NCBI RefSeq assembly: GCF_003334385.1
Contig: NZ_QOWN01000025.1
Length of the DNA: 64,000 nt
DNA from: Escherichia coli
Lineage (GTDB): Bacteria > Pseudomonadota > Gammaproteobacteria > Enterobacterales > Enterobacteriaceae
Direction: 5' to 3' (one strand)
Every line of letters starts with the position of its first letter. Within the stretch, counting starts at the first letter, position 1. A program made the translations under genes and the position numbers. The notes beneath the pieces were generated by a model. That model was not told the origin of the DNA, did no database searches, and saw only the letters and a program-made list of their open reading frames with translations. Below, one piece after another: positions 18,322 through 40,948 of the stretch.

Positions 18322-18339
18322 TAGCCTGCGCAGACAAAC

Positions 18340-18387: not shown

Positions 18388-18388
18388 T

Positions 18389-20133: not shown

Positions 20134-20149
20134 ACAAAATGGCGGGACA

Positions 20150-20232
20150 TGTAGGCCGGATAAGACGCTGTAGGCCGGATAAGACGCGTCAGCGTCGCAT
20201 CCGGCAATCAGCATCCGGCAATCACCATCAGG
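20150..20232. repeat. REP/BIME cluster
   Basis: TAGGCCGGATAAGACGC repeated, then GACGCGTCAGCGTCGCATCCGGCA; between convergent ypfG and tktB. Confidence 0.6.
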
Positions 20233-22231: not shown

Positions 22232-22250
22232 ATAACACTCCGTGGCTGGT

Positions 22251-23201
22251 TTATAGTTTGGCGGCAAGAAGATCTTCCAGTTTGCGTTGATCAACGGCGA
22301 ACAGACGAATGCCTTCAGACAGTTTTTCTACCGCCATCGCATCCTGATTGTGCTCCCAACGGAACTCCGCTTCGCTCATGGGAGCTGGGCGTGGGAACGT
22401 CTGAGAAGGTGGGATTAATTTACGTACCACTGGCGAAACTTTTTCCTGCAGCTCCTTCAGTAAATTCGGTGCGATAGTCAGTCGATCGCAGCCGGTTAAG
22501 GCGAGGATTTGTTCGGTGCGACGGAAGCTCGCGCCCATCACAATGGTTTCATAGTGGTGTTGCTTATAGTAGTCGTAGATATTGCGCACCGATTTAACGC
22601 CCGGATCTTCTTCCACCACATACGGGTCCATCGGCTTGCGTGCCTGATACCAGTCATAAATACGCCCGACAAACGGCGAAATCAGAAAAACGCCTGCTTC
22701 CGCACAGGCCCGTGCCTGTGCAAAAGAAAACAGCAGCGTCAGGTTGCAGTTAATACCTTCTTTTTCCAGCTCTTCTGCCGCGCGAATTCCTTCCCAGGTC
22801 GAAGCCAGCTTGATCAGAATGCGTGATTTCTCAACGCCTTGTTGCTGATACAAGTCCACCAGATGGCGCGCCTTCTCAATACTCTTTTCTTTATCAAAAG
22901 AGAGGCGTGCATCAACTTCTGTTGACACGCGACCGGGTACGATTTTGAGGATTTCAGCACCGAAATTGACCGCCAGTTTGTCACACGCTGCGACCACCTG
23001 TTGTTCCTGGGTCTTGCCATTTTTTTTACCCCAGGCGATAGCATCGTCTATTAAATGCTCATATTGTGATAATCCGGCAGCTTTGAGTAACAGCGAAGGA
23101 TTGGTGGTGGCATCCTGGGGATGATAATGGCGAATGGACTCAATATCGCCGCTGTCTGCCACGACAGTGGTGAACTGTTTGATGCCGTCTAACTCGTTCA
23201 T
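22251..23201 (-). CDS. talA: transaldolase A
   Basis: 316 aa ([19 protein letters not shown]); AAGGAG RBS. Confidence 0.9.
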
Positions 23202-23489
23202 AGGAAATACTCCTTGAAAAGTAAAGTGTTAGATGAGTGCGTTAATTCACACTTCTGAGAAATTTCGCTAAACGCATCAAAAAAGCATAGCAGACAGGCA
23301 TGGTATTGCTGGATTAAGCAGGTAACATCAGTGTTATAGGATTATTACCAAAACATTATATTAATGGTGAGAGTTTGGACTTGCTCAAAGTCTGTAGACT
23401 CCGGCAGGGTAATAATGTGCGCCACGTTGTGGGCAGGGGCTGTTGCCCACACACTTTATTTGTGAACGTTACGTGAAAGGAACAACCAA

Positions 23490-25769
23490 ATGGATGACCA
23501 GTTAAAACAAAGTGCACTTGATTTCCATGAATTTCCAGTTCCAGGGAAAATCCAGGTTTCTCCAACCAAGCCTCTGGCAACACAGCGCGATCTGGCGCTG
23601 GCCTACTCACCAGGCGTTGCCGCACCTTGTCTTGAAATCGAAAAAGACCCGTTAAAAGCCTACAAATATACCGCCCGCGGTAACCTGGTGGCGGTGATCT
23701 CTAACGGTACGGCGGTGCTGGGGTTAGGCAACATTGGCGCGCTGGCAGGCAAACCGGTGATGGAAGGCAAGGGCGTTCTGTTTAAGAAATTCGCCGGGAT
23801 TGATGTATTTGACATTGAAGTTGACGAACTCGACCCGGACAAATTTATTGAAGTTGTCGCCGCGCTCGAACCAACCTTCGGCGGCATCAACCTCGAAGAC
23901 ATTAAAGCGCCAGAATGTTTCTATATTGAACAGAAACTGCGCGAGCGGATGAATATTCCGGTATTCCACGACGATCAGCACGGCACGGCAATTATCAGCA
24001 CTGCCGCCATCCTCAACGGCTTGCGCGTGGTGGAGAAAAACATCTCCGACGTGCGGATGGTGGTTTCCGGCGCGGGTGCCGCAGCAATCGCCTGTATGAA
24101 CCTGCTGGTAGCGCTGGGTCTGCAAAAACATAACATCGTGGTTTGCGATTCAAAAGGCGTTATCTATCAGGGCCGTGAGCCAAACATGGCGGAAACCAAA
24201 GCCGCATATGCGGTGGTGGATGACGGCAAACGTACCCTCGATGATGTGATTGAAGGCGCGGATATTTTCCTGGGCTGTTCCGGCCCGAAAGTGCTGACCC
24301 AGGAAATGGTGAAGAAAATGGCTCGTGCGCCAATGATCCTGGCGCTGGCGAACCCGGAACCGGAAATTCTGCCGCCGCTGGCGAAAGAAGTGCGTCCGGA
24401 TGCCATCATTTGCACCGGTCGTTCTGACTATCCGAACCAGGTGAACAACGTCCTGTGCTTCCCGTTCATCTTCCGTGGCGCGCTGGACGTTGGCGCAACC
24501 GCCATCAACGAAGAGATGAAACTGGCGGCGGTACGTGCGATTGCAGAACTCGCCCATGCGGAACAGAGCGAAGTGGTGGCTTCAGCGTATGGCGATCAGG
24601 ATCTGAGCTTTGGTCCGGAATACATCATTCCAAAACCGTTTGATCCGCGCTTGATCGTTAAGATCGCTCCTGCGGTCGCTAAAGCCGCGATGGAGTCGGG
24701 CGTGGCGACTCGTCCGATTGCTGATTTCGACGTCTACATCGACAAGCTGACTGAGTTCGTTTACAAAACCAACCTGTTTATGAAGCCGATTTTCTCCCAG
24801 GCTCGCAAAGCGCCGAAGCGCGTTGTTCTGCCGGAAGGGGAAGAGGCGCGCGTTCTGCATGCCACTCAGGAACTGGTAACGCTGGGACTGGCGAAACCGA
24901 TCCTTATCGGTCGTCCGAACGTGATCGAAATGCGCATTCAGAAACTGGGCTTGCAGATCAAAGCGGGCGTTGATTTTGAGATCGTCAATAACGAATCCGA
25001 TCCGCGCTTTAAAGAGTACTGGACCGAATACTTCCAGATCATGAAGCGTCGCGGCGTCACTCAGGAACAGGCGCAGCGGGCGCTGATCAGTAACCCGACA
25101 GTGATCGGCGCGATCATGGTTCAGCGTGGGGAAGCCGATGCAATGATTTGCGGTACGGTGGGTGATTATCATGAACATTTTAGCGTGGTGAAAAATGTCT
25201 TTGGTTATCGCGATGGCGTTCACACCGCAGGTGCCATGAACGCGCTGCTGCTGCCGAGTGGTAACACCTTTATTGCCGATACATATGTTAATGATGAACC
25301 GGATGCAGAAGAGCTGGCGGAGATCACCTTGATGGCGGCAGAAACTGTCCGTCGTTTTGGTATTGAGCCGCGCGTTGCTTTGTTGTCGCACTCCAACTTT
25401 GGTTCTTCTGACTGCCCGTCGTCGAGCAAAATGCGTCAGGCGCTGGAACTGGTCAGGGAACGTGCACCAGAACTGATGATTGATGGTGAAATGCACGGCG
25501 ATGCAGCGCTGGTGGAAGCGATTCGCAACGACCGTATGCCGGACAGCTCTTTGAAAGGTTCCGCCAATATTCTGGTGATGCCGAACATGGAAGCTGCCCG
25601 CATTAGTTACAACTTACTGCGTGTTTCCAGCTCGGAAGGTGTGACTGTCGGCCCGGTGCTGATGGGTGTGGCGAAACCGGTTCACGTGTTAACGCCGATC
25701 GCATCGGTGCGTCGTATCGTCAACATGGTGGCGCTGGCCGTGGTAGAAGCGCAAACCCAACCGCTGTAA
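23490..25769 (+). CDS. maeB: NADP-dependent malic enzyme
   Basis: 759 aa; N-terminal malic-enzyme domain plus C-terminal phosphotransacetylase-like domain. Confidence 0.9.
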
Positions 25770-25788
25770 TTTTTTTTAACTCTCACGC

Positions 25789-25812
25789 TTACCCTGAATA
25801 TTCAGGGTAAGC
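25789..25812 (+). terminator. palindromic hairpin downstream of maeB
   Basis: CTTACCCTGAA-TATTCAGGGTAAG perfect palindrome, 20 nt after the maeB stop; weak T-tract. Confidence 0.35.
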
Positions 25813-26061
25813 AGTTTAGCTGCAATATATTAGTAAAGCTTATTACTGAGTTTGCGAATAATAAAAAAAAGCAGTCTATATAATATCTCGATATTATTTT
25901 ATTTATATTCATGCGTTGCATATGAAAGTTTATGCACCACAGCGAATATCTCTCCATTCTTAGTGATCTACCTCACCTTTTAAACGCGCTTGCCGAATTT
26001 TGTTATTTACTCTGACGAAAAATTGTCACGATACACGAAAGTTTTTCACAGGCGGCGACTC

Positions 26062-26397
26062 ATGGATAAAGAACGCATCATTCAGGAATTTGTGCCCGGC
26101 AAACAGGTCACACTGGCGCATCTCATCGCGCATCCCGGTGAGGAACTGGCGAAGAAAATCGGCGTTCCGGATGCGGGCGCAATTGGCATTATGACGCTAA
26201 CTCCCGGCGAAACGGCGATGATCGCCGGTGATTTAGCGCTGAAAGCCGCTGATGTGCATATCGGTTTTCTCGACCGATTCAGCGGTGCATTGGTGATTTA
26301 TGGCTCGGTGGGCGCAGTAGAAGAAGCGTTATCACAAACCGTCAGCGGTTTAGGTCGCTTATTAAATTATACGCTTTGTGAAATGACCAAAAGTTAA
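26062..26397 (+). CDS. eutS: ethanolamine microcompartment shell protein EutS (permuted BMC domain)
   Basis: ATG 26062 gives [10 protein letters not shown] (111 aa); first gene of the eut cluster. Confidence 0.9.
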
Positions 26398-26409
26398 TAC
26401 GAGGCATTC

Positions 26410-26889
26410 ATGAAACGAATTGCGTTTGTGGGTAGCGTCGGGGCAGGAAAAACAACGTTATTTAATGCGTTGCAGGGGAATTATACCCTCGCCAGAAAAA
26501 CACAGGCCGTGGAATTTAATGATAAGGGCGATATTGATACGCCGGGTGAATATTTTAACCATCCCCGCTGGTATCACGCCTTAATTACCACGCTACAGGA
26601 TGTAGACATGCTGATCTATGTCCATGGCGCAAATGACCCGGAAAGTCGGTTGCCTGCCGGGTTGCTGGATATTGGCGTCAGCAAACGGCAAATCGCCGTC
26701 ATCAGTAAAACGGACATGCCAGATGCTGACGTCGCCGCAACGCGAAAGTTATTGCTTGAGACGGGTTTCGAAGAGCCGATTTTCGAGCTAAACAGCCACG
26801 ACCCGCAAAGCGTGCAGCAACTGGTGGATTATCTGGCATCTCTCACCAAACAGGAGGAAGCAGGTGAAAAAACTCATCACAGCGAATGA
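26410..26889 (+). CDS. eutP: ethanolamine utilisation P-loop NTPase
   Basis: 159 aa; Walker A GSVGAGKTT. Confidence 0.9.
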   Translation: MKRIAFVGSVGAGKTTLFNALQGNYTLARKTQAVEFNDKGDIDTPGEYFNHPRWYHALITTLQDVDMLIYVHGANDPESRLPAGLLDIGVSKRQIAVISKTDMPDADVAATRKLLLETGFEEPIFELNSHDPQSVQQLVDYLASLTKQEEAGEKTHHSE

Positions 26890-27565
26890 TATTCGTGAAG
26901 CACACGCGCGCGGCGAACAGGCAATGTCCGTGGTTCTGCGCGCCAGCATTATTACCCCGGAAGCCCGTGAAGTGGCGGATCTACTGGGTTTTACCATCAC
27001 CGAATGTGATGAATCGATCCCGGTAACGGCGTCCGTGCCCGCCAGCGTGCCAGCCGACAAAACCGAAAGCCAGCGCATCCGCGAAACCATCATTGCCCAG
27101 CTGCCGGAAGGCCAGTTTACCGAAAGCCTGGTCGCACAGCTGATGGAAAAAGTGATGAAGGAAAAACAGTCGCTGGAGCAGGGCGCAATGCAGCCGAGCT
27201 TCAAATCGGTGACCGGCAAAGGCGGCATCAAAGTGATTGATGGCAGTAGCGTCAAGTTTGGTCGTTTCGACGGCGCAGAGCCGCATTGCGTGGGCTTGAC
27301 TGATCTTGTGACCGGAGACGACGGCAGCAGCATGGCCGCCGGTTTTATGCAGTGGGAGAACGCATTCTTCCCGTGGACCCTGAACTACGACGAAATCGAC
27401 ATGGTGCTGGAAGGGGAGCTGCATGTTCGCCACGAAGGCCAAACCATGATCGCCAAAGCAGGCGACGTGATGTTTATCCCGAAAGGCTCCAGCATCGAAT
27501 TTGGTACGACATCCAGCGTGAAATTCCTGTATGTCGCCTGGCCGGCTAACTGGCAATCCCTATGA
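26864..27565 (+). CDS. eutQ: ethanolamine utilisation cupin-fold protein
   Basis: 233 aa; overlaps the eutP 3' end by 26 nt. Confidence 0.85.
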   Translation: MKKLITANDIREAHARGEQAMSVVLRASIITPEAREVADLLGFTITECDESIPVTASVPASVPADKTESQRIRETIIAQLPEGQFTESLVAQLMEKVMKEKQSLEQGAMQPSFKSVTGKGGIKVIDGSSVKFGRFDGAEPHCVGLTDLVTGDDGSSMAAGFMQWENAFFPWTLNYDEIDMVLEGELHVRHEGQTMIAKAGDVMFIPKGSSIEFGTTSSVKFLYVAWPANWQSL

Positions 27566-28365
27566 AAGATTTCATCACCGAAGCATGGCTAAGAGCGAAC
27601 CATACGCTCAGCGAAGGCGCAGAGATCCATCTCCCTGCGGACAGTCGCCTGACGCCCTCTGCCCGGGAGTTGCTGGAAAGCCGCCATCTGCGCATCAAGT
27701 TTATTGACGAGCAGGGCCGCCTGTTTGTTGACGATGAACAGCAGCAGCCGCAGCCCGTTCATGGGCTGACCAGTAGCGATGAACATCCGCAGGCGTGCTG
27801 CGAACTGTGTCGCCAGCCGGTGGCAAAAAAGCCGGATACGCTGACTCACCTGTCGGCGGAAAAAATGGTCGCCAAAAGCGATCCGCGTCTGGGTTTTCGC
27901 GCGGTTCTCGACAGCACCATTGCGCTGGCAGTGTGGCTGCAAATTGAACTGGCGGAACCGTGGCAGCCGTGGCTGGCGGATATCCGTTCGCGTCTTGGCA
28001 ACATTATGCGCGCCGATGCGCTGGGGGAACCGCTGGGCTGCCAGGCGATTGTCGGGCTTTCTGACGAAGATCTGCATCGGCTTTCTCATCAGCCGCTGCG
28101 CTATCTCGACCACGATCATCTGGTGCCGGAAGCCAGCCACGGGCGCGATGCTGCGTTGCTCAATCTGCTACGCACCAAAGTGCGGGAAACCGAAACCGTA
28201 GCGGCGCAGGTCTTTATCACCCGCAGCTTTGAAGTATTACGCCCGGACATTTTGCAGGCGCTGAACCGCCTTTCGAGCACGGTCTACGTGATGATGATCC
28301 TGAGCGTAACGAAGCAGCCGCTAACGGTGAAGCAGATCCAACAACGACTGGGGGAAACGCAATGA
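27562..28365 (+). CDS. eutT: ethanolamine utilisation cobalamin adenosyltransferase
   Basis: 267 aa; 4-nt overlap with eutQ; Cys-rich HPQACCELC motif. Confidence 0.85.
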
Positions 28366-29378
28366 TTATTGAACGTTGTCGTGAACTGGCGTTGCGAGCG
28401 CCCGCCAGAGTGGTTTTTCCGGATGCGTTAGACCAACGTGTGCTGAAAGCCGCGCAATATTTACATCAACAAGGTCTGGCAACGCCCATTCTGGTCGCCA
28501 ATCCGTTTGAACTTCGTCAGTTTGCGCTCAGTCACGGCGTGGCGATGGACGGGCTACAGGTGATTGATCCGCATGGCAACCTCGCAATGCGGGAAGAATT
28601 TGCTCATCGCTGGCTGGCCCGCGCGGGCGAAAAAACGCCGCCGGATGCGCTGGAAAAACTTACCGACCCTCTGATGTTCGCCGCAGCAATGGTCAGCGCC
28701 GGTAAAGCGGATGTCTGTATCGCGGGCAACCTCTCTTCCACGGCAAATGTGCTGCGTGCCGGATTACGCATTATCGGCTTGCAGCCAGGCTGTAAAACGC
28801 TCTCTTCCATTTTCCTGATGTTGCCACAGTACAGCGGCCCGGCGTTGGGCTTTGCCGATTGCAGCGTGGTGCCACAGCCGACGGCGGCGCAGCTGGCGGA
28901 TATCGCGCTTGCCAGTGCCGAAACCTGGCGCGCCATCACCGGAGAAGAGCCGCGCGTGGCGATGCTGTCGTTTTCCAGCAATGGTAGCGCCCGTCACCCC
29001 TGTGTTGCTAACGTCCAGCAGGCGACAGAAATCGTCCGTGAGCGCGCACCAAAGCTGGTGGTGGATGGCGAGTTACAGTTTGACGCCGCCTTCGTGCCGG
29101 AAGTGGCGGCGCAAAAAGCGCCTGCCAGCCCGCTACAGGGCAAGGCCAATGTGATGGTTTTTCCGTCGCTGGAAGCCGGAAATATTGGTTACAAAATCGC
29201 ACAACGACTCGGCGGATATCGTGCCGTCGGGCCACTGATACAAGGACTTGCCGCGCCGATGCACGATCTCTCTCGTGGTTGTAGCGTGCAGGAAATTATC
29301 GAGCTGGCGCTGGTGGCAGCTGTGCCGCGTCAGACAGAAGTGAACCGCGAAAGCAGTTTACAAACACTGGTTGAATGA
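28362..29378 (+). CDS. eutD: phosphotransacetylase EutD (EutI)
   Basis: 338 aa Pta-like; 4-nt overlap with eutT. Confidence 0.9.
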
Positions 29379-29416
29379 ACGGTCCCGTTCTGGACCCTGA
29401 TAAAGAGGAAAGCACA

Positions 29417-29710
29417 ATGGAAGCATTAGGAATGATCGAAACCCGGGGCCTGGTTGCACTGATTGAGGCTTCTGACGCGATGGTGAAAGCTGCGCGCGTC
29501 AAGCTGGTTGGTGTTAAGCAGATTGGCGGCGGCCTGTGTACTGCCATGGTTCGTGGTGATGTTGCAGCCTGTAAAGCCGCGACCGATGCAGGTGCCGCAG
29601 CGGCACAGCGTATCGGCGAGCTGGTATCTGTACACGTTATCCCGCGTCCGCACGGCGACCTGGAAGAAGTCTTCCCGATCGGCCTGAAAGGCGATAGCAG
29701 CAACCTGTAA
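29417..29710 (+). CDS. eutM: microcompartment shell protein EutM (BMC hexamer)
   Basis: ATG 29417 gives [26 protein letters not shown] (97 aa), canonical BMC domain. Confidence 0.9.
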
Positions 29711-29816
29711 TCACCCTGTGTGACGTCGATTCGGGCGTCACGCTCTCTCCTTTTTCATTTTACCTTCTGCGGAGGGTAGGGGGAGCTTTTACCTGAAATA
29801 CGCCACGGAGGCGGGT

Positions 29817-30104
29817 ATGAAACTGGCAGTCGTCACTGGACAAATTGTTTGTACCGTACGCCATCACGGACTGGCGCATGACAAATTGCTGATGGTGGAA
29901 ATGATTGATCCACAAGGTAATCCTGACGGGCAATGCGCCGTCGCCATCGACAATATTGGCGCGGGAACCGGGGAGTGGGTGTTACTGGTGAGTGGCAGTT
30001 CCGCCCGCCAGGCGCATAAAAGCGAAACGTCACCGGTCGATCTGTGCGTGATTGGCATTGTCGATGAGGTGGTGTCTGGCGGTCAGGTAATTTTCCACAA
30101 ATAA
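29817..30104 (+). CDS. eutN: microcompartment vertex protein EutN (BMV pentamer)
   Basis: 95 aa (MKLAVVTGQIVCTVRHHG). Confidence 0.9.
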   Translation: MKLAVVTGQIVCTVRHHGLAHDKLLMVEMIDPQGNPDGQCAVAIDNIGAGTGEWVLLVSGSSARQAHKSETSPVDLCVIGIVDEVVSGGQVIFHK

Positions 30105-30115
30105 GGCAGAACATC

Positions 30116-31519
30116 ATGAATCAACAGGATATTGAACAGGTGGTGAAAGCGGTACTGCTGAAAATGCAAAGCAGTGACACGCCGTCCGCCGCCGTTCATG
30201 AGATGGGCGTTTTCGCGTCCCTGGATGACGCCGTTGCGGCAGCCAAAGTCGCCCAGCAAGGGTTAAAAAGCGTGGCAATGCGCCAGTTAGCCATTGCTGC
30301 CATTCGTGAAGCAGGCGAAAAACACGCCAGAGATTTAGCGGAACTTGCCGTCAGTGAAACCGGCATGGGGCGCGTTGAAGATAAATTTGCAAAAAACGTC
30401 GCTCAGGCGCGCGGCACACCAGGCGTTGAGTGCCTCTCTCCGCAAGTGCTGACTGGCGACAACGGCCTGACCCTAATTGAAAACGCACCCTGGGGCGTGG
30501 TGGCTTCGGTGACGCCTTCCACTAACCCGGCGGCAACCGTAATTAACAACGCCATCAGCCTGATTGCCGCGGGCAACAGCGTCATTTTTGCCCCGCATCC
30601 GGCGGCGAAAAAAGTCTCCCAGCGGGCGATTACGCTGCTCAACCAGGCGATTGTTGCCGCAGGTGGGCCGGAAAACTTACTGGTTACTGTGGCAAATCCG
30701 GATATCGAAACCGCGCAACGCTTGTTCAAGTTTCCGGGTATCGGCCTGCTGGTGGTAACCGGCGGCGAAGCGGTAGTAGAAGCGGCGCGTAAACACACCA
30801 ATAAACGTCTGATTGCCGCAGGCGCTGGCAACCCGCCGGTAGTGGTGGATGAAACCGCCGACCTCGCCCGTGCCGCTCAGTCCATCGTCAAAGGCGCTTC
30901 TTTCGATAACAACATCATTTGTGCCGACGAAAAGGTACTGATTGTTGTTGATAGCGTAGCCGATGAACTGATGCGTCTGATGGAAGGCCAGCACGCGGTG
31001 AAACTGACCGCAGAACAGGCGCAGCAGCTGCAACCGGTGTTGCTGAAAAATATCGACGAGCGCGGAAAAGGCACCGTCAGCCGTGACTGGGTTGGTCGCG
31101 ACGCAGGCAAAATCGCGGCGGCAATCGGCCTTAAAGTTCCGCAAGAAACGCGCCTGCTGTTTGTGGAAACCACCGCAGAACATCCGTTTGCCGTGACTGA
31201 ACTGATGATGCCGGTGTTGCCCGTCGTGCGCGTCGCCAACGTGGCGGATGCCATTGCGCTAGCGGTGAAACTGGAAGGCGGTTGCCACCACACGGCGGCA
31301 ATGCACTCGCGCAACATCGAAAACATGAACCAGATGGCGAATGCTATTGATACCAGCATTTTCGTTAAGAACGGACCGTGCATTGCCGGGCTGGGGCTGG
31401 GCGGGGAAGGCTGGACCACCATGACCATCACCACGCCAACCGGTGAAGGGGTAACCAGCGCGCGTACGTTTGTCCGTCTGCGTCGCTGTGTATTAGTCGA
31501 TGCGTTTCGCATTGTTTAA
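30116..31519 (+). CDS. eutE: CoA-acylating acetaldehyde dehydrogenase
   Basis: 467 aa aldehyde dehydrogenase family; N-terminal amphipathic helix (encapsulation-peptide-like). Confidence 0.9.
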   Translation: MNQQDIEQVVKAVLLKMQSSDTPSAAVHEMGVFASLDDAVAAAKVAQQGLKSVAMRQLAIAAIREAGEKHARDLAELAVSETGMGRVEDKFAKNVAQARGTPGVECLSPQVLTGDNGLTLIENAPWGVVASVTPSTNPAATVINNAISLIAAGNSVIFAPHPAAKKVSQRAITLLNQAIVAAGGPENLLVTVANPDIETAQRLFKFPGIGLLVVTGGEAVVEAARKHTNKRLIAAGAGNPPVVVDETADLARAAQSIVKGASFDNNIICADEKVLIVVDSVADELMRLMEGQHAVKLTAEQAQQLQPVLLKNIDERGKGTVSRDWVGRDAGKIAAAIGLKVPQETRLLFVETTAEHPFAVTELMMPVLPVVRVANVADAIALAVKLEGGCHHTAAMHSRNIENMNQMANAIDTSIFVKNGPCIAGLGLGGEGWTTMTITTPTGEGVTSARTFVRLRRCVLVDAFRIV

Positions 31520-31529
31520 GGAGTAACAG

Positions 31530-32366
31530 ATGGCGCACGACGAACAATGGCTCACCCCACGTCTGCAAACGGCGGCAACGCTGTGTAACCAGACGCCCGC
31601 CGCGACGGAATCTCCGCTGTGGCTGGGGGTGGATCTGGGCACCTGCGATGTGGTGTCGATGGTTGTCGACCGCGACGGTCAGCCAGTGGCGGTATGCCTC
31701 GACTGGGCCGATGTGGTTCGCGACGGCATCGTCTGGGATTTCTTCGGCGCTGTCACCATTGTTCGTCGCCATCTCGACACGCTCGAGCAGCAATTCGGTC
31801 GTCGTTTTAGCCATGCGGCGACTTCATTTCCTCCAGGTACGGACCCGCGTATTTCCATCAACGTGCTGGAATCTGCCGGACTGGAAGTGAGCCATGTGCT
31901 GGATGAGCCAACCGCAGTTGCGGATCTGCTGCAACTGGACAACGCCGGTGTAGTGGATATCGGCGGCGGCACTACCGGCATTGCCATCGTGAAAAAGGGC
32001 AAGGTGACGTACTCGGCGGATGAAGCCACCGGCGGACATCACATCTCTCTGACTCTCGCCGGAAATCGCCGTATTTCGCTGGAAGAGGCGGAGCAGTACA
32101 AGCGCGGTCACGGTGAAGAGATTTGGCCTGCGGTGAAACCGGTGTACGAAAAAATGGCGGACATTGTCGCCCGGCATATTGAAGGGCAGGGCATTACTGA
32201 TTTATGGCTGGCGGGCGGCTCTTGTATGCAACCGGGCGTGGCGGAACTGTTTCGCAAACAATTCCCGGCGTTACAGGTGCATTTACCGCAGCACAGTTTG
32301 TTTATGACCCCGCTGGCGATCGCCAGTAGTGGGCGAGAGAAAGCGGAGGGGCTATATGCAAAATGA
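31530..32366 (+). CDS. eutJ: Hsp70/actin-fold chaperone-like protein EutJ
   Basis: 278 aa; DLGTCDV and DIGGGTTG ATPase motifs. Confidence 0.9.
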   Translation: MAHDEQWLTPRLQTAATLCNQTPAATESPLWLGVDLGTCDVVSMVVDRDGQPVAVCLDWADVVRDGIVWDFFGAVTIVRRHLDTLEQQFGRRFSHAATSFPPGTDPRISINVLESAGLEVSHVLDEPTAVADLLQLDNAGVVDIGGGTTGIAIVKKGKVTYSADEATGGHHISLTLAGNRRISLEEAEQYKRGHGEEIWPAVKPVYEKMADIVARHIEGQGITDLWLAGGSCMQPGVAELFRKQFPALQVHLPQHSLFMTPLAIASSGREKAEGLYAK

Positions 32367-33543
32367 ATTGCAGACCGCGCTCTTTCAGGCGTTCGATACC
32401 CTGAATCTGCAACGGGTAAAAACATTTAGCGTTCCACCGGTGACGCTTTGCGGTCCGGGCTCGGTGAGCAGTTGCGGACAGCAAGCGCAAACGCGTGGGC
32501 TGAAACATCTGTTCGTGATGGCAGACAGCTTTTTGCATCAGGCAGGGATGACCGCCGGGCTGACGCGTAGCCTGACCGTTAAAGGTATCGCCATGACGCT
32601 CTGGCCATGTCCGGTGGGCGAACCGTGCATTACCGACGTGTGTGCAGCCGTGGCGCAGTTGCGTGAGTCAGGCTGTGATGGGGTGATCGCGTTTGGCGGC
32701 GGCTCGGTGCTGGATGCGGCGAAAGCCGTGACGTTGCTGGTGACGAACCCGGATAGCACGCTGGCAGAGATGTCAGAAACCAGCGTTCTGCAACCGCGCT
32801 TGCCGCTGATTGCCATTCCAACTACCGCCGGAACCGGCTCTGAAACCACCAATGTAACGGTGATTATCGACGCGGTGAGCGGGCGCAAGCAGGTGTTAGC
32901 CCATGCCTCGCTGATGCCGGATGTGGCGATCCTCGACGCCGCATTGACCGAAGGTGTGCCGTCGCATGTCACGGCGATGACCGGCATTGATGCGTTAACC
33001 CATGCCATTGAAGCATACAGCGCCCTGAACGCTACACCGTTTACCGACAGTCTGGCGATTGGTGCCATTGCGATGATTGGCAAATCGCTGCCGAAAGCGG
33101 TGGGCTACGGTCACGACCTTGCCGCGCGCGAGAGCATGTTGCTGGCTTCATGTATGGCGGGAATGGCGTTTTCCAGTGCGGGTCTTGGGTTGTGCCACGC
33201 GATGGCGCATCAGCCGGGCGCGGCGCTGCATATTCCGCACGGTCTCGCGAACGCCATGTTGCTGCCAACGGTGATGGAATTTAACCGGATGGTTTGTCGT
33301 GAACGCTTTAGTCAGATTGGTCGGGCACTGCGAACTAAAAAATCCGACGATCGTGACGCTATTAACGCGGTAAGTGAGCTGATTGCGGAAGTTGGGATTG
33401 GTAAACGACTGGGCGATGTTGGTGCGACATCTGCGCATTACGGCGCATGGGCGCAGGCCGCGCTGGAAGATATTTGTCTGCGCAGTAACCCGCGTACCGC
33501 CAGCCTGGAGCAGATTGTCGGCCTGTACGCAGCGGCGCAATAA
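32356..33543 (+). CDS. eutG: iron-containing alcohol dehydrogenase EutG
   Basis: ORF 32329..33543; ATG 32356 gives MQNELQTALF (395 aa); overlaps eutJ by 11 nt. Confidence 0.9.
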   Translation: MQNELQTALFQAFDTLNLQRVKTFSVPPVTLCGPGSVSSCGQQAQTRGLKHLFVMADSFLHQAGMTAGLTRSLTVKGIAMTLWPCPVGEPCITDVCAAVAQLRESGCDGVIAFGGGSVLDAAKAVTLLVTNPDSTLAEMSETSVLQPRLPLIAIPTTAGTGSETTNVTVIIDAVSGRKQVLAHASLMPDVAILDAALTEGVPSHVTAMTGIDALTHAIEAYSALNATPFTDSLAIGAIAMIGKSLPKAVGYGHDLAARESMLLASCMAGMAFSSAGLGLCHAMAHQPGAALHIPHGLANAMLLPTVMEFNRMVCRERFSQIGRALRTKKSDDRDAINAVSELIAEVGIGKRLGDVGATSAHYGAWAQAALEDICLRSNPRTASLEQIVGLYAAAQ

Positions 33544-33545
33544 AT

Positions 33546-33745
<200 letters not shown>

Positions 33746-33759
33746 AGGGAGTAAAGGCG

Positions 33760-34986
33760 ATGGGAATTAACGAAATCATCATGTACATCATGATGTTCTT
33801 TATGCTGATAGCTGCCGTAGACAGGATCCTGTCGCAGTTCGGCGGTTCTGCTCGTTTCCTCGGTAAGTTCGGTAAAAGTATCGAAGGATCAGGCGGTCAG
33901 TTCGAAGAAGGCTTTATGGCAATGGGCGCACTGGGCCTGGCGATGGTCGGTATGACCGCGCTGGCACCGGTACTGGCTCACGTTCTCGGGCCGGTAATTA
34001 TTCCGGTTTACGAAATGCTCGGCGCTAACCCATCGATGTTCGCCGGAACACTGCTGGCGTGCGATATGGGCGGCTTCTTCCTCGCCAAAGAGCTGGCGGG
34101 CGGCGACGTAGCCGCGTGGCTATACTCTGGGTTAATTCTCGGGTCGATGATGGGGCCAACGATTGTGTTTTCCATTCCGGTGGCGCTCGGCATTATCGAA
34201 CCTTCTGACCGTCGTTATCTGGCGCTCGGCGTGCTGGCGGGCATTGTGACCATTCCGATTGGTTGTATCGCTGGTGGTCTGGTTGCTATGTACTCCGGTG
34301 TGCAGATCAACGGCCAGCCGGTGGAATTCACTTTCGCCCTGATCCTGATGAACATGATCCCGGTGATCATTGTTGCGATTCTGGTGGCGCTGGGGCTGAA
34401 ATTCATCCCGGAAAAAATGATCAACGGCTTCCAGATCTTCGCCAAATTCCTCGTTGCATTGATCACCCTCGGTCTTGCCGCTGCGGTAGTGAAATTCCTG
34501 CTTGGCTGGGAACTGATCCCCGGTCTGGATCCTATCTTTATGGCCCCTGGCGATAAACCCGGTGAGGTGATGCGCGCCATTGAAGTTATCGGTTCTATCT
34601 CCTGCGTTCTGTTAGGGGCGTATCCGATGGTGCTGCTGCTGACTCGCTGGTTTGAAAAACCGCTGATGAGCGTCGGTAAAGTACTGAATATGAACAACAT
34701 CGCGGCAGCCGGCATGGTGGCAACGCTTGCCAACAACATCCCGATGTTCGGCATGATGAAGCAGATGGATACCCGCGGCAAAGTCATCAACTGCGCCTTC
34801 GCCGTTTCCGCTGCTTTCGCCCTGGGCGACCACTTAGGCTTCGCCGCTGCCAACATGAACGCCATGATCTTCCCGATGATTGTCGGCAAGTTGATCGGCG
34901 GCGTAACGGCGATTGGCGTGGCGATGATGCTGGTGCCAAAAGAAGACGCGACCGCGACTAAAACCGAAGCGGAGGCACAATCGTGA
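33760..34986 (+). CDS. eutH: ethanolamine permease EutH
   Basis: 408 aa polytopic membrane protein. Confidence 0.9.
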   Translation: MGINEIIMYIMMFFMLIAAVDRILSQFGGSARFLGKFGKSIEGSGGQFEEGFMAMGALGLAMVGMTALAPVLAHVLGPVIIPVYEMLGANPSMFAGTLLACDMGGFFLAKELAGGDVAAWLYSGLILGSMMGPTIVFSIPVALGIIEPSDRRYLALGVLAGIVTIPIGCIAGGLVAMYSGVQINGQPVEFTFALILMNMIPVIIVAILVALGLKFIPEKMINGFQIFAKFLVALITLGLAAAVVKFLLGWELIPGLDPIFMAPGDKPGEVMRAIEVIGSISCVLLGAYPMVLLLTRWFEKPLMSVGKVLNMNNIAAAGMVATLANNIPMFGMMKQMDTRGKVINCAFAVSAAFALGDHLGFAAANMNAMIFPMIVGKLIGGVTAIGVAMMLVPKEDATATKTEAEAQS

Positions 34987-36386
34987 ACACTCGCCAGCTA
35001 TTGAGCGTCGGTATCGATATCGGCACCACCACCACCCAGGTGATTTTCTCCCGGCTGGAGCTGGTTAACCGTGCGGCGGTGTCGCAGGTGCCGCGCTACG
35101 AATTCATTAAACGCGAAATTAGCTGGCAAAGTCCGGTGTTCTTTACCCCTGTCGATAAACAGGGCGGTTTAAAAGAAGCGGAACTGAAAACCTTAATACT
35201 CGAGCAATATCATGCTGCGGGTATTGAGCCGGAAAGCGTTGATTCTGGTGCCATCATCATCACCGGTGAAAGCGCGAAAACCCGCAATGCTCGCCCGGCG
35301 GTGATGGCGCTCTCTCAGTCGCTGGGCGATTTTGTCGTTGCCAGCGCCGGGCCGCACCTCGAATCCGTGATCGCCGGTCACGGAGCCGGGGCACAAACCC
35401 TTTCTGAACAACGGCTGTGTCGGGTACTGAATATCGACATCGGCGGTGGCACCGCGAACTACGCCCTGTTCGATGCCGGAAAAATCAGCGGCACTGCCTG
35501 CCTCAACGTCGGTGGTCGCCTGCTGGAAACCGACAGCCACGGGCGCGTGGTTTACGCTCATAAACCGGGGCAGATGATTGTGGATGAGTGCTTCGGTGCA
35601 GGCACCGACGCCCGTTCGCTGACCGGCGCGCAGCTGGTGCAGGTGACCCGGCGGATGGCAGAACTGATTGTCGAAGTGATTGACGGAACGCTCTCACCGC
35701 TCGCGCAGGCATTGATGCAAACCGGTTTGCTGCCCGCAGGTGTTACGCCCGAAATCATTACGCTTTCTGGCGGCGTGGGCGAATGTTATCGCCACCAGCC
35801 CGCCGACCCGTTCTGTTTTGCCGATATTGGCCCGCTGCTGGCAACTGCGCTGCATGACCATCCGCGCCTGCGTGAGATGAACGTACAGTTTCCGGCGCAA
35901 ACCGTGCGCGCCACGGTGATTGGCGCGGGCGCGCATACCCTTTCGCTCTCTGGCAGCACAATCTGGCTTGAGGGCGTACAACTGCCGCTGCGCAATTTGC
36001 CGGTGGCGATCCCGATTGATGAAACGGATCTGGTGGGGGCCTGGCAACAGGCGCTGATTCAGCTGGATCTTGATCCCAAAACTGACGCGTACGTGCTGGC
36101 GCTTCCCGCCTCGCTGCCTGTGCGTTACGCCGCGGTACTGACGGTCATCAACGCGTTGGTCGATTTCGTCGCGCGTTTTCCGAATCCGCATCCCCTGCTG
36201 GTGGTGGCCGGGCAGGACTTTGGTAAAGCTCTGGGCATGTTGTTGCGCCCACAGCTACAACAACTCCCGTTGGCAGTCATTGACGAAGTGATTGTCCGCG
36301 CGGGGGACTATATCGACATTGGTACGCCTCTTTTTGGCGGATCGGTTGTGCCGGTGACGGTGAAATCACTCGCATTTCCTTCCTGA
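34983..36386 (+). CDS. eutA: ethanolamine ammonia-lyase reactivase EutA
   Basis: 467 aa; 4-nt overlap with eutH. Confidence 0.9.
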   Translation: MNTRQLLSVGIDIGTTTTQVIFSRLELVNRAAVSQVPRYEFIKREISWQSPVFFTPVDKQGGLKEAELKTLILEQYHAAGIEPESVDSGAIIITGESAKTRNARPAVMALSQSLGDFVVASAGPHLESVIAGHGAGAQTLSEQRLCRVLNIDIGGGTANYALFDAGKISGTACLNVGGRLLETDSHGRVVYAHKPGQMIVDECFGAGTDARSLTGAQLVQVTRRMAELIVEVIDGTLSPLAQALMQTGLLPAGVTPEIITLSGGVGECYRHQPADPFCFADIGPLLATALHDHPRLREMNVQFPAQTVRATVIGAGAHTLSLSGSTIWLEGVQLPLRNLPVAIPIDETDLVGAWQQALIQLDLDPKTDAYVLALPASLPVRYAAVLTVINALVDFVARFPNPHPLLVVAGQDFGKALGMLLRPQLQQLPLAVIDEVIVRAGDYIDIGTPLFGGSVVPVTVKSLAFPS

Positions 36387-36397
36387 GGGAACGACTT

Positions 36398-37760
36398 ATG
36401 AAACTAAAGACCACATTGTTCGGCAATGTATATCAGTTTAAGGATGTAAAAGAGGTGCTGGCTAAAGCCAACGAACTGCGTTCGGGGGATGTGCTGGCGG
36501 GCGTCGCAGCGGCAAGCTCACAGGAGCGCGTGGCGGCAAAGCAGGTGTTGTCGGAAATGACCGTAGCGGACATCCGCAATAATCCGGTGATTGCCTATGA
36601 AGATGACTGCGTGACGCGGCTGATTCAGGACGATGTTAACGAAACGGCCTACAACCAGATTAAAAACTGGAGCATCAGCGAACTGCGTGAGTATGTGCTG
36701 AGCGATGAAACCAGCGTGGACGACATTGCCTTTACCCGCAAAGGGCTGACCTCGGAAGTGGTCGCGGCGGTAGCGAAGATTTGCTCCAACGCGGACCTGA
36801 TCTACGGCGCGAAGAAAATGCCGGTAATCAAAAAGGCCAATACCACCATCGGTATTCCGGGCACCTTTAGCGCCCGTTTGCAGCCAAATGACACCCGTGA
36901 CGACGTGCAAAGTATCGCCGCGCAAATCTACGAAGGGCTTTCCTTCGGGGTGGGCGATGCGGTGATCGGCGTTAACCCGGTGACTGACGACGTGGAAAAC
37001 TTAAGCCGCGTGTTGGATACCATCTATGGCGTGATCGACAAATTCAACATCCCAACTCAGGGCTGTGTACTGGCGCACGTCACCACCCAGATCGAAGCGA
37101 TCCGTCGTGGCGCACCGGGCGGGCTGATTTTCCAGAGTATCTGTGGCAGCGAAAAAGGGCTGAAAGAGTTTGGCGTGGAGCTGGCGATGCTCGACGAAGC
37201 GCGCGCAGTGGGCGCGGAGTTCAACCGTATCGCCGGGGGAAAACTGCCTCTACTTCGAAACCGGACAAGGCTCTGCGCTATCCGCTGGCGCTAACTTCGG
37301 CGCAGACCAGGTAACGATGGAAGCACGTAACTACGGGCTGGCGCGTCATTACGATCCGTTTATCGTCAACACCGTGGTCGGCTTTATTGGGCCGGAGTAT
37401 CTCTACAACGACCGCCAGATTATCCGTGCTGGCTTAGAAGATCACTTTATGGGCAAGCTGAGCGGCATCTCTATGGGCTGTGACTGCTGTTATACCAACC
37501 ACGCTGACGCTGACCAGAACCTCAACGAAAACCTGATGATCCTGCTCGCCACCGCAGGCTGCAACTACATCATGGGGATGCCGCTGGGTGATGACATCAT
37601 GCTCAACTACCAGACCACCGCATTCCACGATACCGCCACTGTGCGTCAGTTACTCAACCTGCGCCCGTCACCGGAGTTTGAACGCTGGCTGGAAAGCATG
37701 GGCATTATGGCAAACGGTCGCCTGACCAAACGGGCGGGCGATCCGTCACTGTTCTTCTGA
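36398..37760 (+). pseudogene. eutB: ethanolamine ammonia-lyase heavy chain, disrupted by a +1 frameshift
   Basis: Track splits EutB into 36398..37294 (298 aa) and 37170..37760 (196 aa). Frames switch at the G5 run 37235..37239: upstream frame reads ...FNRIAGG then nonsense; downstream frame reads ...SPGENCLYFETGQGS. Total span is 1363 nt, i.e. 454 codons plus one extra base. Confidence 0.8.
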
Positions 37761-37780
37761 TGACGCGGAGATAACATATC

Positions 37781-38668
37781 ATGGATCAAAAACAGATTGA
37801 AGAAATTGTACGCAGCGTGATGGCGTCAATGGGACAAGCGGCCCCCGCGCCGTCAGAAGCAAAGTGCGCCACCACCAACTGTGCGGCACCGGTGACCTCG
37901 GAAAGCTGTGCGCTGGATTTAGGTTCCGCTGAAGCAAAAGCGTGGATTGGTGTTGAAAATCCGCATCGCGCAGACGTATTAACAGAACTGCGCCGCAGCA
38001 CCGTGGCCCGCGTTTGTACCGGTCGTGCCGGTCCGCGTCCACGTACGCAGGCGCTGCTGCGTTTCCTGGCCGATCACTCTCGTTCGAAAGATACCGTACT
38101 GAAAGAAGTGCCGGAAGAGTGGGTGAAAGCGCAGGGCTTGCTGGAAGTACGCTCTGAAATTAGCGACAAAAATCTCTACCTGACTCGCCCGGATATGGGC
38201 CGCCGCCTGTGTGCAGAAGCTGTTGAAGCGCTGAAAGCGCAGTGTGTTGCCAATCCGGACGTACAGGTCGTTATTTCTGATGGCCTGTCAACTGATGCGA
38301 TCACCGTGAACTACGAAGAGATCCTGCCACCGCTGATGGCGGGCCTGAAACAGGCCGGGCTGAAAGTCGGTACACCATTCTTTGTTCGTTATGGTCGCGT
38401 GAAGATTGAAGATCAGATCGGTGAGATCCTCGGCGCGAAAGTAGTGATCCTGCTGGTGGGCGAACGTCCGGGGTTGGGTCAGTCAGAAAGCCTCTCCTGC
38501 TACGCCGTTTACTCGCCGCGTATGGCGACCACCGTTGAGGCCGATCGCACCTGTATCTCTAACATTCACCAGGGCGGCACGCCGCCGGTTGAAGCCGCAG
38601 CCGTCATTGTGGATTTGGCGAAACGTATGCTGGAGCAGAAAGCATCCGGCATCAACATGACCCGATAA
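37781..38668 (+). CDS. eutC: ethanolamine ammonia-lyase light chain
   Basis: 295 aa; N-terminal [17 protein letters not shown] amphipathic targeting-peptide-like segment. Confidence 0.9.
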
Positions 38669-38677
38669 GGAGGCATC

Positions 38678-39337
38678 ATGCCAGCTTTAGATTTGATTCG
38701 ACCGTCTGTCACCGCTATGCGGGTGATTGCCTCCGTTAACGCCGATTTTGCGCGTGAACTGAAATTGCCGCCGCATATTCGTAGCCTCGGTCTGATTTCT
38801 GCCGACTCCGATGACGTCACCTACATTGCCGCTGATGAAGCGACCAAGCAGGCGATGGTGGAAGTGGTGTATGGCCGCTCGCTATATGCGGGCGCTGCAC
38901 ACGGCCCGTCACCGACTGCCGGTGAAGTGCTGATTATGCTTGGTGGGCCAAACCCGGCGGAAGTGCGTGCAGGTCTGGATGCGATGATTGCGCATATTGA
39001 AAATGGCGCAGCTTTCCAGTGGGCTAATGACGCGCAAGATACGGCATTCCTGGCACATGTAGTTTCGCGTACCGGTTCTTATCTCTCATCAACCGCCGGG
39101 ATCACGCTTGGCGATCCGATGGCGTATCTGGTGGCACCGCCGCTGGAAGCGACCTATGGCATTGATGCAGCCCTGAAGTCTGCCGACGTACAGCTGGCGA
39201 CCTATGTCCCGCCACCGTCTGAAACCAACTACTCGGCAGCATTTTTAACCGGTAGCCAGGCAGCGTGTAAAGCAGCCTGTAACGCCTTTACCGATGCAGT
39301 GCTGGAAATCGCGCGTAATCCAATCCAGCGTGCGTAA
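38678..39337 (+). CDS. eutL: microcompartment shell protein EutL (tandem BMC)
   Basis: 219 aa. Confidence 0.9.
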
Positions 39338-39349
39338 CGGAGGTTGCCG

Positions 39350-39850
39350 ATGATCAATGCACTGGGATTGCTGGAAGTGGACGGCATGGTCGCCGCGATA
39401 GATGCAGCGGATGCCATGCTCAAAGCAGCTAACGTTCGTCTGCTCAGTCACGAAGTGCTTGACCCTGGTCGCTTAACGCTGGTGGTGGAAGGCGATCTGG
39501 CGGCGTGTCGTGCGGCGCTGGACGCAGGTTGTGCTGCCGCGATGCGTACCGGGCGTGTCATCAGCCGCAAGGAGATCGGTCGGCCAGACGATGACACCCA
39601 GTGGCTGGTTACTGGCTTTAACCGCCAGCCGAAGCAACCCGTAAGGGAACCCGACGCGCCAGTTATCGTCGCGGAATCTGCTGACGAGTTGTTGGCGCTG
39701 TTAACATCAGTACGTCAGGGAATGACGGCAGGAGAAGTGGCTGCCCACTTTGGCTGGCCGCTGGAAAAAGCCAGAAATGCGCTCGAACAGCTCTTTTCTG
39801 CCGGGACGTTACGTAAACGCAGTAGTCGTTATCGTCTCAAGCCCCATTAA
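39350..39850 (+). CDS. eutK: microcompartment shell protein EutK (BMC plus C-terminal HTH-like domain)
   Basis: ORF 39344..39850; ATG 39350 gives MINALGLLEVDGMVAAIDAADAMLKAA (166 aa). Confidence 0.85.
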   Translation: MINALGLLEVDGMVAAIDAADAMLKAANVRLLSHEVLDPGRLTLVVEGDLAACRAALDAGCAAAMRTGRVISRKEIGRPDDDTQWLVTGFNRQPKQPVREPDAPVIVAESADELLALLTSVRQGMTAGEVAAHFGWPLEKARNALEQLFSAGTLRKRSSRYRLKPH

Positions 39851-39895
39851 CCTGTCGGAGGTGCCGGGTGTCCTACAACACCCGGCATTAACATC

Positions 39896-40948
39896 ATGAA
39901 AAAGACCCGTACAGCCAATTTGCACCATCTTTATCATGAACCCTTACCCGAAAACCTGAAGCTCACGCCGAAGGTCGAAGTGGATAATGTTCATCAACGA
40001 CAGACAACGGATGTCTATGAACATGCTTTAACGATTACCGCCTGGCAGCAGATTTACGATCAGCTGCATCCGGGCAAGTTTCATGGTGAATTTACGGAAA
40101 TTCTACTCGATGATATTCAGGTTTTTCGTGAATACACCGGTCTGGCGCTGCGTCAGTCGTGCCTGGTCTGGCCGAACTCGTTCTGGTTTGGCATTCCGGC
40201 GACGCGCGGTGAGCAGGGATTTATCGGTTCGCAATGTCTGGGAAGCGCGGAAATCGCCACCCGCCCTGGTGGCACTGAATTTGAACTGAGCACGCCGGAT
40301 GATTACACGATCCTGGGCGTGGTGCTTTCTGAAGATGTCATCACCCGGCAGGCTAACTTTTTGCATAACCCGGATCGGGTATTACATATGTTGCGTAACC
40401 AGTCGGCGCTGGAAGTGAAAGAGCAGCATAAAGCCGCGCTGTGGGGCTTTGTCCAACAGGCGCTGGCGACGTTTTGCGAGAATCCGGAAAATCTCCATCA
40501 GCCTGCAGTGCGAAAAGTGCTGGGGGATAATTTGCTAATGGCGATGGGGGCCATGCTGGAAGAAGCGCAACCAATGGTGACGGCGGAAAGCATCAGTCAT
40601 CAGAGTTACCGTCGATTGCTTTCCCGCGCCCGTGAATATGTGCTGGAAAACATGTCCGAACCGGTGACGGTGCTGGATTTGTGTAATCAACTGCATGTCA
40701 GCCGCCGCACGCTACAAAACGCGTTTCACGCTATTTTAGGCATTGGCCCGAACGCGTGGCTGAAACGCATTCGCCTGAACGCCGTACGCCGCGAACTGAT
40801 AAGTCCGTGGTCGCAAAGTATGACGGTAAAAGACGCCGCCATGCAGTGGGGATTCTGGCATCTGGGGCAATTTGCCACGGATTACCAGCAGCTGTTTTCC
40901 GAGAAGCCGTCACTGACGCTGCATCAGCGGATGCGGGAGTGGGGGTGA
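39896..40948 (+). CDS. eutR: AraC-family transcriptional activator of the eut operon
   Basis: 350 aa; C-terminal AraC HTH; last gene of the cluster. Confidence 0.9.

Follow-up and report, generated by a model that had tools for sequence, protein, structure and literature searches.

The ethanolamine (eut) operon of this strain raises a double question. In E. coli K-12 MG1655 a prophage, CPZ-55, lies between eutA and eutB; in the window (the whole 64,000-nucleotide stretch of DNA that was analysed) the two genes are neighbors. Does the missing prophage set the strain apart from K-12, and is an operon with such an orderly layout functional?

The operon occupies positions 26062-40948 on the + strand, where the ORF list gives eutS-P-Q-T-D-M-N-E-J-G-H-A-B-C-L-K-R contiguously from the eutS ATG to the eutR stop. 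In a profile search 16 of the 17 genes reached the NCBIfam curated cut-off; 14 match models that bear Eut names, EutD matches a phosphotransacetylase model and EutE an aldehyde dehydrogenase model. In strain SCU-104, whose locus is nearly identical, the RefSeq annotation gives coordinates that agree to the base, and the locus is colinear with the annotated SCU-104 and MG1655 loci. The contiguous 17-gene order proposed in the first-pass annotation is thus borne out by ORFs, coordinates and NCBIfam matches alike. The region is very probably the canonical enterobacterial 17-gene eut operon, for B12-dependent ethanolamine catabolism in a protein microcompartment, uninterrupted but with a broken eutB. 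Its features are:

26062..26397, + strand: eutS, microcompartment shell protein, 111 aa (NF012012, 247 bits against a cut-off of 123; SCU-104 RefSeq annotation)
26410..26889, + strand: eutP, 159 aa (NF012011, 350 bits)
26864..27565, + strand: eutQ, 233 aa (NF012001, 502 bits)
27562..28365, + strand: eutT, corrinoid adenosyltransferase, 267 aa (NF011595, 571 bits)
28362..29378, + strand: eutD, phosphotransacetylase, 338 aa (NF007233, 411 bits)
29417..29710, + strand: eutM, major BMC-H shell protein, 97 aa (NF012018, 213 bits)
29817..30104, + strand: eutN, pentameric vertex protein, 95 aa, intact in the window (NF011992, 210 bits)
30116..31519, + strand: eutE, acetaldehyde dehydrogenase, 467 aa (NF011927, 738 bits)
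31530..32366, + strand: eutJ, 278 aa (NF011660, 403 bits)
32356..33543, + strand: eutG, alcohol dehydrogenase, 395 aa (NF011998, 888 bits)
33545..33729, + strand: 1.9 copies of a REP/BIME-type 100-bp unit in the eutG-eutH spacer (Rfam naRNA4 match at 33598-33679)
33760..34986, + strand: eutH, ethanolamine permease, 408 aa (NF011665, 874 bits)
34983..36386, + strand: eutA, ethanolamine ammonia-lyase reactivase, 467 aa (NF007991, 1069 bits)
36398..37760, + strand: eutB pseudogene, ethanolamine ammonia-lyase large subunit (halves below the NF011649 cut-off; SCU-104 copy annotated 'frameshifted')
37781..38668, + strand: eutC, ethanolamine ammonia-lyase small subunit, 295 aa, intact (NF003971, 340 bits)
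38678..39337, + strand: eutL, BMC-T shell protein, 219 aa (NF011934, 400 bits)
39350..39850, + strand: eutK, shell protein, 166 aa (NF012010, 362 bits)
39896..40948, + strand: eutR, AraC-type activator, last gene, 350 aa (NF007522, 789 bits, positions 1-350 of 350)

The set of shell proteins is complete (BMC-H EutM, EutK and EutS; BMC-T EutL; pentamer EutN), all being full length and above cut-off. In the proposed scheme EutS, M, N, L and K would form the shell, EutBC the lyase with EutA as its reactivase, EutH the permease and EutR the activator, while EutE, D, G, T, P, Q and J would be the downstream enzymes. An Rfam scan of the operon gave only the REP-derived naRNA4 match, and promoter and terminator scans of it gave nothing above shuffled background.

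At the junction, the last base of the eutA TGA is 36386 and the first of the eutB ATG is 36398, a spacing of 11 nucleotides that the first reading also gave. These 11 nucleotides are GGGAACGACTT. Alignment to MG1655 and to strain BMH-17-0027 defines the following feature:

36379..36397, + strand: empty attachment site, a single 8-bp core CTTCCTGA (the last 8 nucleotides of eutA, including the TGA) followed by the 11-nucleotide spacer GGGAACGACTT

In the MG1655 record (NC_000913.3) CPZ-55 is annotated as a cryptic prophage between eutB and eutA. The alignment shows an insert of 6,790 bp placed exactly after the eutA stop codon, with the core CTTCCTGA on both flanks, where the window has one copy; in BMH-17-0027 the same core flanks an insert of 12,992 bp. 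The same 8-bp duplication at the CPZ-55 insertion has been reported (PMC6379469). The window thus lacks the K-12-type eut::CPZ-55 allele (intZ-yffS after the eutA stop, with CTTCCTGA duplicated). Annotation and alignment both uphold the claim that MG1655 has CPZ-55 at this point and the window does not: the junction in that record is interrupted, and the site in the window is empty. The core serves IntZ-type integrative elements as their site at the eutA stop, here unoccupied. An empty junction fits a never-inserted and a precisely excised state equally and does not discriminate between them, because K-12 derivatives that have lost CPZ-55 show the identical sequence. Most likely CPZ-55 never entered this lineage, to judge from its confinement to K-12.

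How unusual is the uninterrupted state? With a 230-bp junction query, the same contiguous eutA-eutB junction was found in 4,965 of 5,426 complete E. coli genomes (91.5%). (A 15-kb whole-operon query was uninformative as a count of uninterrupted operons, for it joined pieces 6.8 kb apart into one place.) At least 80% of CPZ-55 is present in about 213 genomes, and among those listed nearly all are K-12 laboratory strains; other intZ-type elements account for some 200 further genomes. In a published survey CPZ-55 was found in 8% of 638 genomes (PMC6379469). The uninterrupted operon is therefore the usual E. coli form, the textbook arrangement, and the MG1655-type prophage a well-documented exception. 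This is known biology that matters little, and the junction of the window is not noteworthy in itself.

Nor is a missing CPZ-55 suitable for typing a strain as non-K-12, because the K-12 derivatives DH5alpha, DH1, NEB 5-alpha, RR1 and XL1-Blue all lack it and have a junction identical to that of the window. Loss of CPZ-55 from K-12 derivatives is on record (PMC11148124, PMC5379014), and several records labelled MG1655 show the same contiguous junction. Typing therefore rests on SNPs. Over 64 kb the window and MG1655 share 99.98% identity, with 10 SNPs and one indel between them. Identity is 100% for the 9,520 bp from eutP codon 154 to the eutA stop, and the 7 further substitutions between the end of eutA and position 64000 all fall outside the eut operon; a SNP at 26781 gives EutP Ile at residue 124 where MG1655 has Met. 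Positions 1-74 of the window are divergent from MG1655. Seven of the 10 SNPs and the eutB frameshift recur in SCU-104, a human commensal of phylogroup A, ST8125 (PMC11251922); it is the only strain in the collection to share them and the closest relative there, at 15 SNPs from the window over 64 kb.

Could the strain nevertheless be a K-12 laboratory derivative, for instance of the DH1/DH5alpha lineage, from which CPZ-55 was precisely excised, so that the junction is a post-excision and not a pre-insertion state? The 99.98% identity and the shared junction of the derivatives and MG1655-labelled records would fit. We nonetheless regard this as extremely unlikely. Strains of the K-12 laboratory pedigree differ from one another by far fewer than 10 SNPs per 64 kb, and the window does not show the handful of SNPs genome-wide from MG1655 that marks the K-12 lineage. 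Moreover, the seven SNPs and the frameshift occur in a wild human ST8125 isolate and in gut-metagenome contigs, the extra G of the frameshift is missing from K-12 records, and the first 74 positions diverge from MG1655. To judge from these sequence comparisons the window derives from a natural strain of phylogroup A, nearly K-12-identical in this stretch and sister to SCU-104. The first-pass annotation had offered a non-K-12 lineage or the pre-insertion state as consequences of the missing prophage; the strain is indeed not K-12, given its 10 SNPs from MG1655 and the sharing of seven with SCU-104, but the missing prophage is not diagnostic of this.

The second question turns on eutB, whose lesion lies at codon 280:

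37235..37239, + strand: GGGGG run, one G more than the GGGG of MG1655 (sequence and alignment)

A 76-bp stretch here has matches in 5,239 complete genomes, and 5,238 of these read GGGG in place of GGGGG. The reading frame (36398-37294) encodes 280 native and 18 out-of-frame residues, 298 aa in all. Removing one G restores a 453-aa protein whose residues 1-453 are identical to those of MG1655 EutB and of PDB 3ABO chain A, in agreement with the frameshift first noted. The two halves match NF011649 separately, at positions 2-278 (356 bits) and 279-451 (292 bits), against a cut-off of 554. The signature enzyme thus has an intact eutC and a eutB split at codon 280. Truncation after residue 280 falls before Glu287, a key active-site residue (PMC8473560, PMC4413051), and removes the C-terminal 173 residues. 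In the proposed mechanism, slipped-strand addition of a G to the G4 run would leave a large subunit that stops after 280 native residues and a meaningless tail of 18. The strain could then make no active ethanolamine ammonia-lyase, so that the frameshift should abolish ethanolamine use and the strain is predicted to be Eut-negative with all its other eut genes intact. B12-dependent growth on ethanolamine and formation of microcompartments are likewise predicted to fail. In the window the eutB frameshift appears to be the sole functional lesion; its stop may also be polar on eutC-L-K-R. The earlier suggestion of a locus intact in layout but possibly non-functional, for another reason than in K-12, is supported by the split profile match and the truncated translation.

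Is the frameshift real? A single-base lesion in a homopolymer run, with the extra G in only one of 5,426 complete RefSeq genomes, is what a sequencing or assembly error in a fully functional operon would look like. The distribution of the allele makes the chance of such an error next to negligible. The exact 298-aa product is present in 105 contigs in 204 blocks from independent projects (NCBI, ENA, JGI, Logan), among whose sources are the isolate KTE14, a strain of the NCTC and metagenome assemblies from the human gut, and it comes from SPAdes, MEGAHIT and long-read pipelines. (A scan of JGI metagenome contigs with the 26-nucleotide G5 pattern for more haplotypes had no matches.) The G5 allele also follows the clade defined by the seven shared SNPs, and sub-lineages carry second eut nonsense mutations, as expected if the operon were already dead. 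These data indicate that eutB G5 is a real, inherited allele. A different reading accepts the allele but takes it as leaky: ribosomes would slip +1 on G5 after GGG, before the rare GGA, or the run would revert appreciably, leaving the operon down-tuned or switchable and not dead. Read from the sequence, GGG_GGA permits perfect P-site tRNA re-pairing after a +1 shift, and low-level slippage there could in principle yield some full-length EutB. However, phase variation usually needs a run longer than 5 nucleotides, there is no evident stimulatory element, and the further fixed nonsense mutations in eutN, eutA and eutR of relatives argue against selection maintaining the operon; we consider a leaky or switchable operon very unlikely.

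The sister haplotypes shown all have a second nonsense mutation, in eutN, eutA or eutR. Three sub-lineages of the frameshift clade have independently acquired the stops eutN Q65* (carried by SCU-104 and by the L012 group), eutA Q302* and eutR E42*, one of the three at a Dcm CCAGG deamination hot spot. Three stops among eight independent eut point mutations compare with a neutral expectation by mutation type of P(>=3) ~0.004, in a test that was post hoc, with small numbers and a non-random sample of contigs gathered by look-up. Because the frameshift is joined in sisters by second nonsense mutations, we read the locus as a decaying, predicted Eut-negative operon. It is conceivable, though rather unlikely, that selection and not mere drift favored the repeated second-site knock-outs as a means of silencing, the frameshifted operon being still inducible by ethanolamine and B12 with the inducer not consumed; the window would then represent the basal, frameshift-only stage. 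The stepwise stops in relatives illustrate, on a small scale and cleanly, how an operon decays once its key enzyme is lost. Ethanolamine is a nutrient thought to be important in gut competition, and a human-gut E. coli lineage predicted to be unable to use it would provide natural Eut-negative commensals for comparison.

How does the locus compare with known ones? In Salmonella enterica and most E. coli (e.g. Nissle 1917, UPEC, EHEC) the operon matches that of the window in its 17 genes, their order and orientation, the final position of eutR, and the close packing and overlap of neighboring genes (PMC7617246, PMC6652756); the difference is that eutB of the window is a frameshifted pseudogene, so that the signature enzyme is missing. 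SCU-104 (NZ_CP053284.1; human rectal swab) is like the window in its empty junction, its G5 frameshift and its seven SNPs from MG1655, but has in addition eutN Q65* (30009 C>T); in the 64 kb another 11 transitions are private to SCU-104, against three private transitions in the window. The window is not SCU-104 itself, given the 15 substitutions, the different left end and a eutN that is intact. Of the SNPs between the two only 30009 is at a Dcm (CCWGG) site, so that neither systematic long-read error nor 5mC hot spots would explain them in general. The IntZ-type islands at eutA/eutB, CPZ-55 and the 13-kb element of BMH-17-0027, use the same core at the eutA stop, where the window has no element. 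In MG1655/BW25113 the 6,790-bp CPZ-55 island, with nine genes on the opposite strand, separates eutA from an intact eutB; the window shares the core CTTCCTGA at the eutA stop but lacks the island, and its eutB is broken. The Eut-negative phenotype of K-12 is reported to arise from the insertion, which keeps eutB from being induced (PMC7617246, PMC6379469), whereas in the window the predicted defect lies in the enzyme itself.

The eut region (26062-40948, + strand) contains 17 co-oriented genes in the order eutS-P-Q-T-D-M-N-E-J-G-H-A-B-C-L-K-R. The first-pass annotation had described this order as contiguous, with eutA and eutB meeting at 36386/36398, and the ORF list, the sequence and a computed gene table all bear this out; the coordinates equal those annotated by RefSeq for the near-identical locus in the commensal strain SCU-104. 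Adjacent genes are 9-45 nt apart or overlap by 4-26 nt, with two wider spacers as exceptions, eutM-eutN (106 nt) and eutG-eutH (216 nt). The latter contains a 100-bp REP/BIME-like unit in 1.9 copies (33545-33729) and a match to Rfam naRNA4 (RF02564, 33598-33679); in strain BMH-17-0027 this spacer is 116 nt, a length consistent with one such unit. Sixteen of the 17 products reach the curated NCBIfam cut-off, nearly all at full length. For fourteen of these the model is named for Eut; EutD and EutE hit the models of phosphotransacetylase and aldehyde dehydrogenase, respectively. Its genes and their order, its shell proteins and its regulator place the locus among enterobacterial 17-gene eut operons; the one defining feature that it lacks is an intact signature enzyme.

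The eutA gene ends at 36386 and eutB starts at 36398, the intervening 11-nt spacer being GGGAACGACTT. In MG1655 (NC_000913.3) the annotation places 'cryptic prophage CPZ-55' (intZ, yffL-yffS) between eutB and eutA. Identity between the window and MG1655 is 100% in the stretch ending at the eutA stop codon, and the MG1655 alignment resumes at the 11-nt spacer, past a 6,790-bp insert. Because the alignment shows this insert after the eutA stop, the MG1655 junction is not contiguous, and the claim that CPZ-55 lies there in MG1655 and is absent from the window holds. The insert is flanked by an 8-bp core, CTTCCTGA, which is the final 8 nt of eutA and lies within a longer imperfect repeat; the window has a single copy of the core. 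The identical 8-bp duplication has been described at CPZ-55 (PMC6379469).

Does an empty junction type a strain as non-K-12? By itself it does not. The empty site is not unusual in E. coli: a 230-bp query with the junction at its centre found it contiguous in 4,965 of 5,426 complete genomes. A 15-kb operon query gave an uninterrupted single-piece match in DH5alpha, NEB 5-alpha, DH1 derivatives, HST04, ER1821R, RR1 and RV308, and in seven records labelled 'K-12 MG1655' (CP010438-CP010444), which have a contiguous eutA-eutB junction. (CP010445, the eighth record of that series, retains CPZ-55.) DH5alpha has an eutA-eutB gap of 11 nt and an exact copy of the window's 200-bp junction, and XL1-Blue and RR1 are reported to be without CPZ-55 (PMC11148124, PMC5379014). 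Taken with DH1, DH5alpha and XL1-Blue, the records CP010438-CP010444 suggest that scarless loss of CPZ-55 is possible in laboratory lineages. Since K-12 derivatives carry the identical empty junction, it does not tell a site that was never occupied from one that lost its insert precisely.

CPZ-55 is covered to at least 80% in 213 genomes, 212 of which reach 99% identity or more; among the matches listed, nearly all carriers are laboratory strains of K-12. The literature agrees, with CPZ-55 in 8% of 638 genomes (PMC6379469). In about 200 other genomes the match is limited to an intZ-like integrase of 80-90% identity, which in the genomes checked belongs to a different island occupying the eutA/eutB site. 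BMH-17-0027, for instance, has a 12,992-bp element at the junction with the same core as CPZ-55. A family of IntZ-type islands has repeatedly integrated at this junction. The BMH-17-0027 island lies at 15990-28992 of its locus (L007) and CPZ-55 at 18692-25481 of the MG1655 locus (L002), the 8-bp core being common to both. This ~13-kb CPZ-55 relative encodes an integrase, an HNH endonuclease, a 726-aa hypothetical protein and an HTH protein. In some records the yffO gene of CPZ-55 carries a terminase small subunit-like annotation, which hints at a phage-satellite origin.

Strain relationships come from the SNPs. Window 75-64000 differs from MG1655 by 10 substitutions and an extra G (99.98% identity), and the window differs from SCU-104 by 15 substitutions and no indels. 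In the three-way comparison, seven SNPs and the frameshift are common to the window and SCU-104 against MG1655; 12 SNPs are private to SCU-104 and three to the window. SCU-104, isolated from a healthy student, belongs to phylogroup A and ST8125 (PMC11251922). On this pattern of sharing we take the source to be a natural strain of phylogroup A whose sister is SCU-104 and which, in this region, differs very little from K-12. The proposal of a non-K-12 lineage or a pre-insertion state thus stands in its first part, by the SNPs and not by the empty junction; for the second, we infer the pre-insertion state as the most economical reading, given that CPZ-55 hardly occurs outside K-12.

All 15 window/SCU-104 differences (window 53-64000) are transitions. 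The SCU-104-private changes have a skewed spectrum (11 of 12 G:C>A:T; on the + strand eight C>T vs three G>A), and only one sits at a Dcm site. The sole window/MG1655 substitution inside the operon is at 26781, eutP codon 124, which is ATT (Ile) in the window, in SCU-104 and in several further strains, and ATG (Met) in MG1655. Window 1-74 (hyfA-hyfB region) does not align to MG1655 and is fully covered by other E. coli genomes; the first 52 bases do not align to SCU-104, where an IS421 transposase gene occupies that position.

The extra G lies in eutB, where 37235-37239 reads GGGGG in place of GGGG. The frame encodes 280 native residues, then GKLPLLRNRTRLCAIRWR, with a stop at 37292-37294. Removing one G gives a 453-aa protein identical to MG1655 EutB; over residues 1-453 this repaired protein aligns with the E. 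coli enzyme of known crystal structure (3ABO and related entries; 1,019.5 bits). The two halves match positions 2-278 and 279-451 of the EutB model, both below cut-off. The truncated product is without the C-terminal 173 residues and Glu287, a residue cited as key to the active site (PMC8473560, PMC4413051); for this reason ethanolamine ammonia-lyase should be absent, with a predicted loss of phenotype.

Among complete RefSeq genomes, the 76-nt stretch with five Gs occurs in SCU-104 only. The exact 298-aa product is found on 105 contigs in a 15-billion-protein collection (indexed in 204 blocks) from NCBI (KTE14 and two other accessions), ENA, JGI and Logan. The contigs examined include SPAdes and MEGAHIT metagenome assemblies, one draft genome and a 5.29-Mb contig of GCA_900449955.1, and in all of them the eutA-eutB spacing is 11 nt. 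The presence of this product across such varied assemblies effectively excludes an assembly artefact. Four representative contigs of 20.9 kb each were compared with the window.

Second eut lesions in haplotypes carrying the eutB frameshift (window positions)
30009, eutN Q65*: L012 group, 16 contigs represented; same eutN stop in SCU-104
35886, eutA Q302*: L014 group and L015, 7 contigs represented
40019, eutR E42*: L013, 1 contig represented
Window: frameshift only, no second eut lesion

All the frameshift sister haplotypes listed thus bear a second nonsense mutation in eut, a different one in each of the three entries; the groups were built on neighbouring proteins being 'mostly the same', so some hidden members may be without the listed mutation. 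The eight independent eut point mutations comprise three nonsense, four missense and one synonymous, leaving out a 43-bp tract in eutG and three single-base deletions in L015 that may be assembly errors. The eutG tract (32544-32586) has six substitutions in L013, a metagenome contig otherwise nearly identical to the window, a pattern suggestive of a short recombination event. Under neutrality, with the mutation types taken into account, three or more stops have a probability of ~0.004, an excess over expectation from a post hoc test on small numbers and non-random sampling. Such an excess could reflect adaptive silencing of a gratuitously inducible operon, to which we give a low probability. 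The eutN stop falls on a Dcm site (CCAGG), a classical hot spot for amber mutations, and because of this and the nature of the test our main reading is relaxed selection on an operon that the broken eutB is predicted to have inactivated beforehand.

The operon observation is confirmed and its first interpretation supported, with caveats on typing and on the inferred steps. None of this is a new kind of finding: the operon, the polymorphism for CPZ-55 and the annotation of the SCU-104 copy as a pseudogene are already on record. The suggestion that the locus may have lost function by another route than in K-12 describes the case well, the predicted loss of function following from the truncated enzyme. 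K-12 is reported to be Eut-negative because the insertion blocks eutB induction and microcompartment formation (PMC7617246); there the defect is an insertion that blocks induction, whereas in the window it would lie in the enzyme itself.
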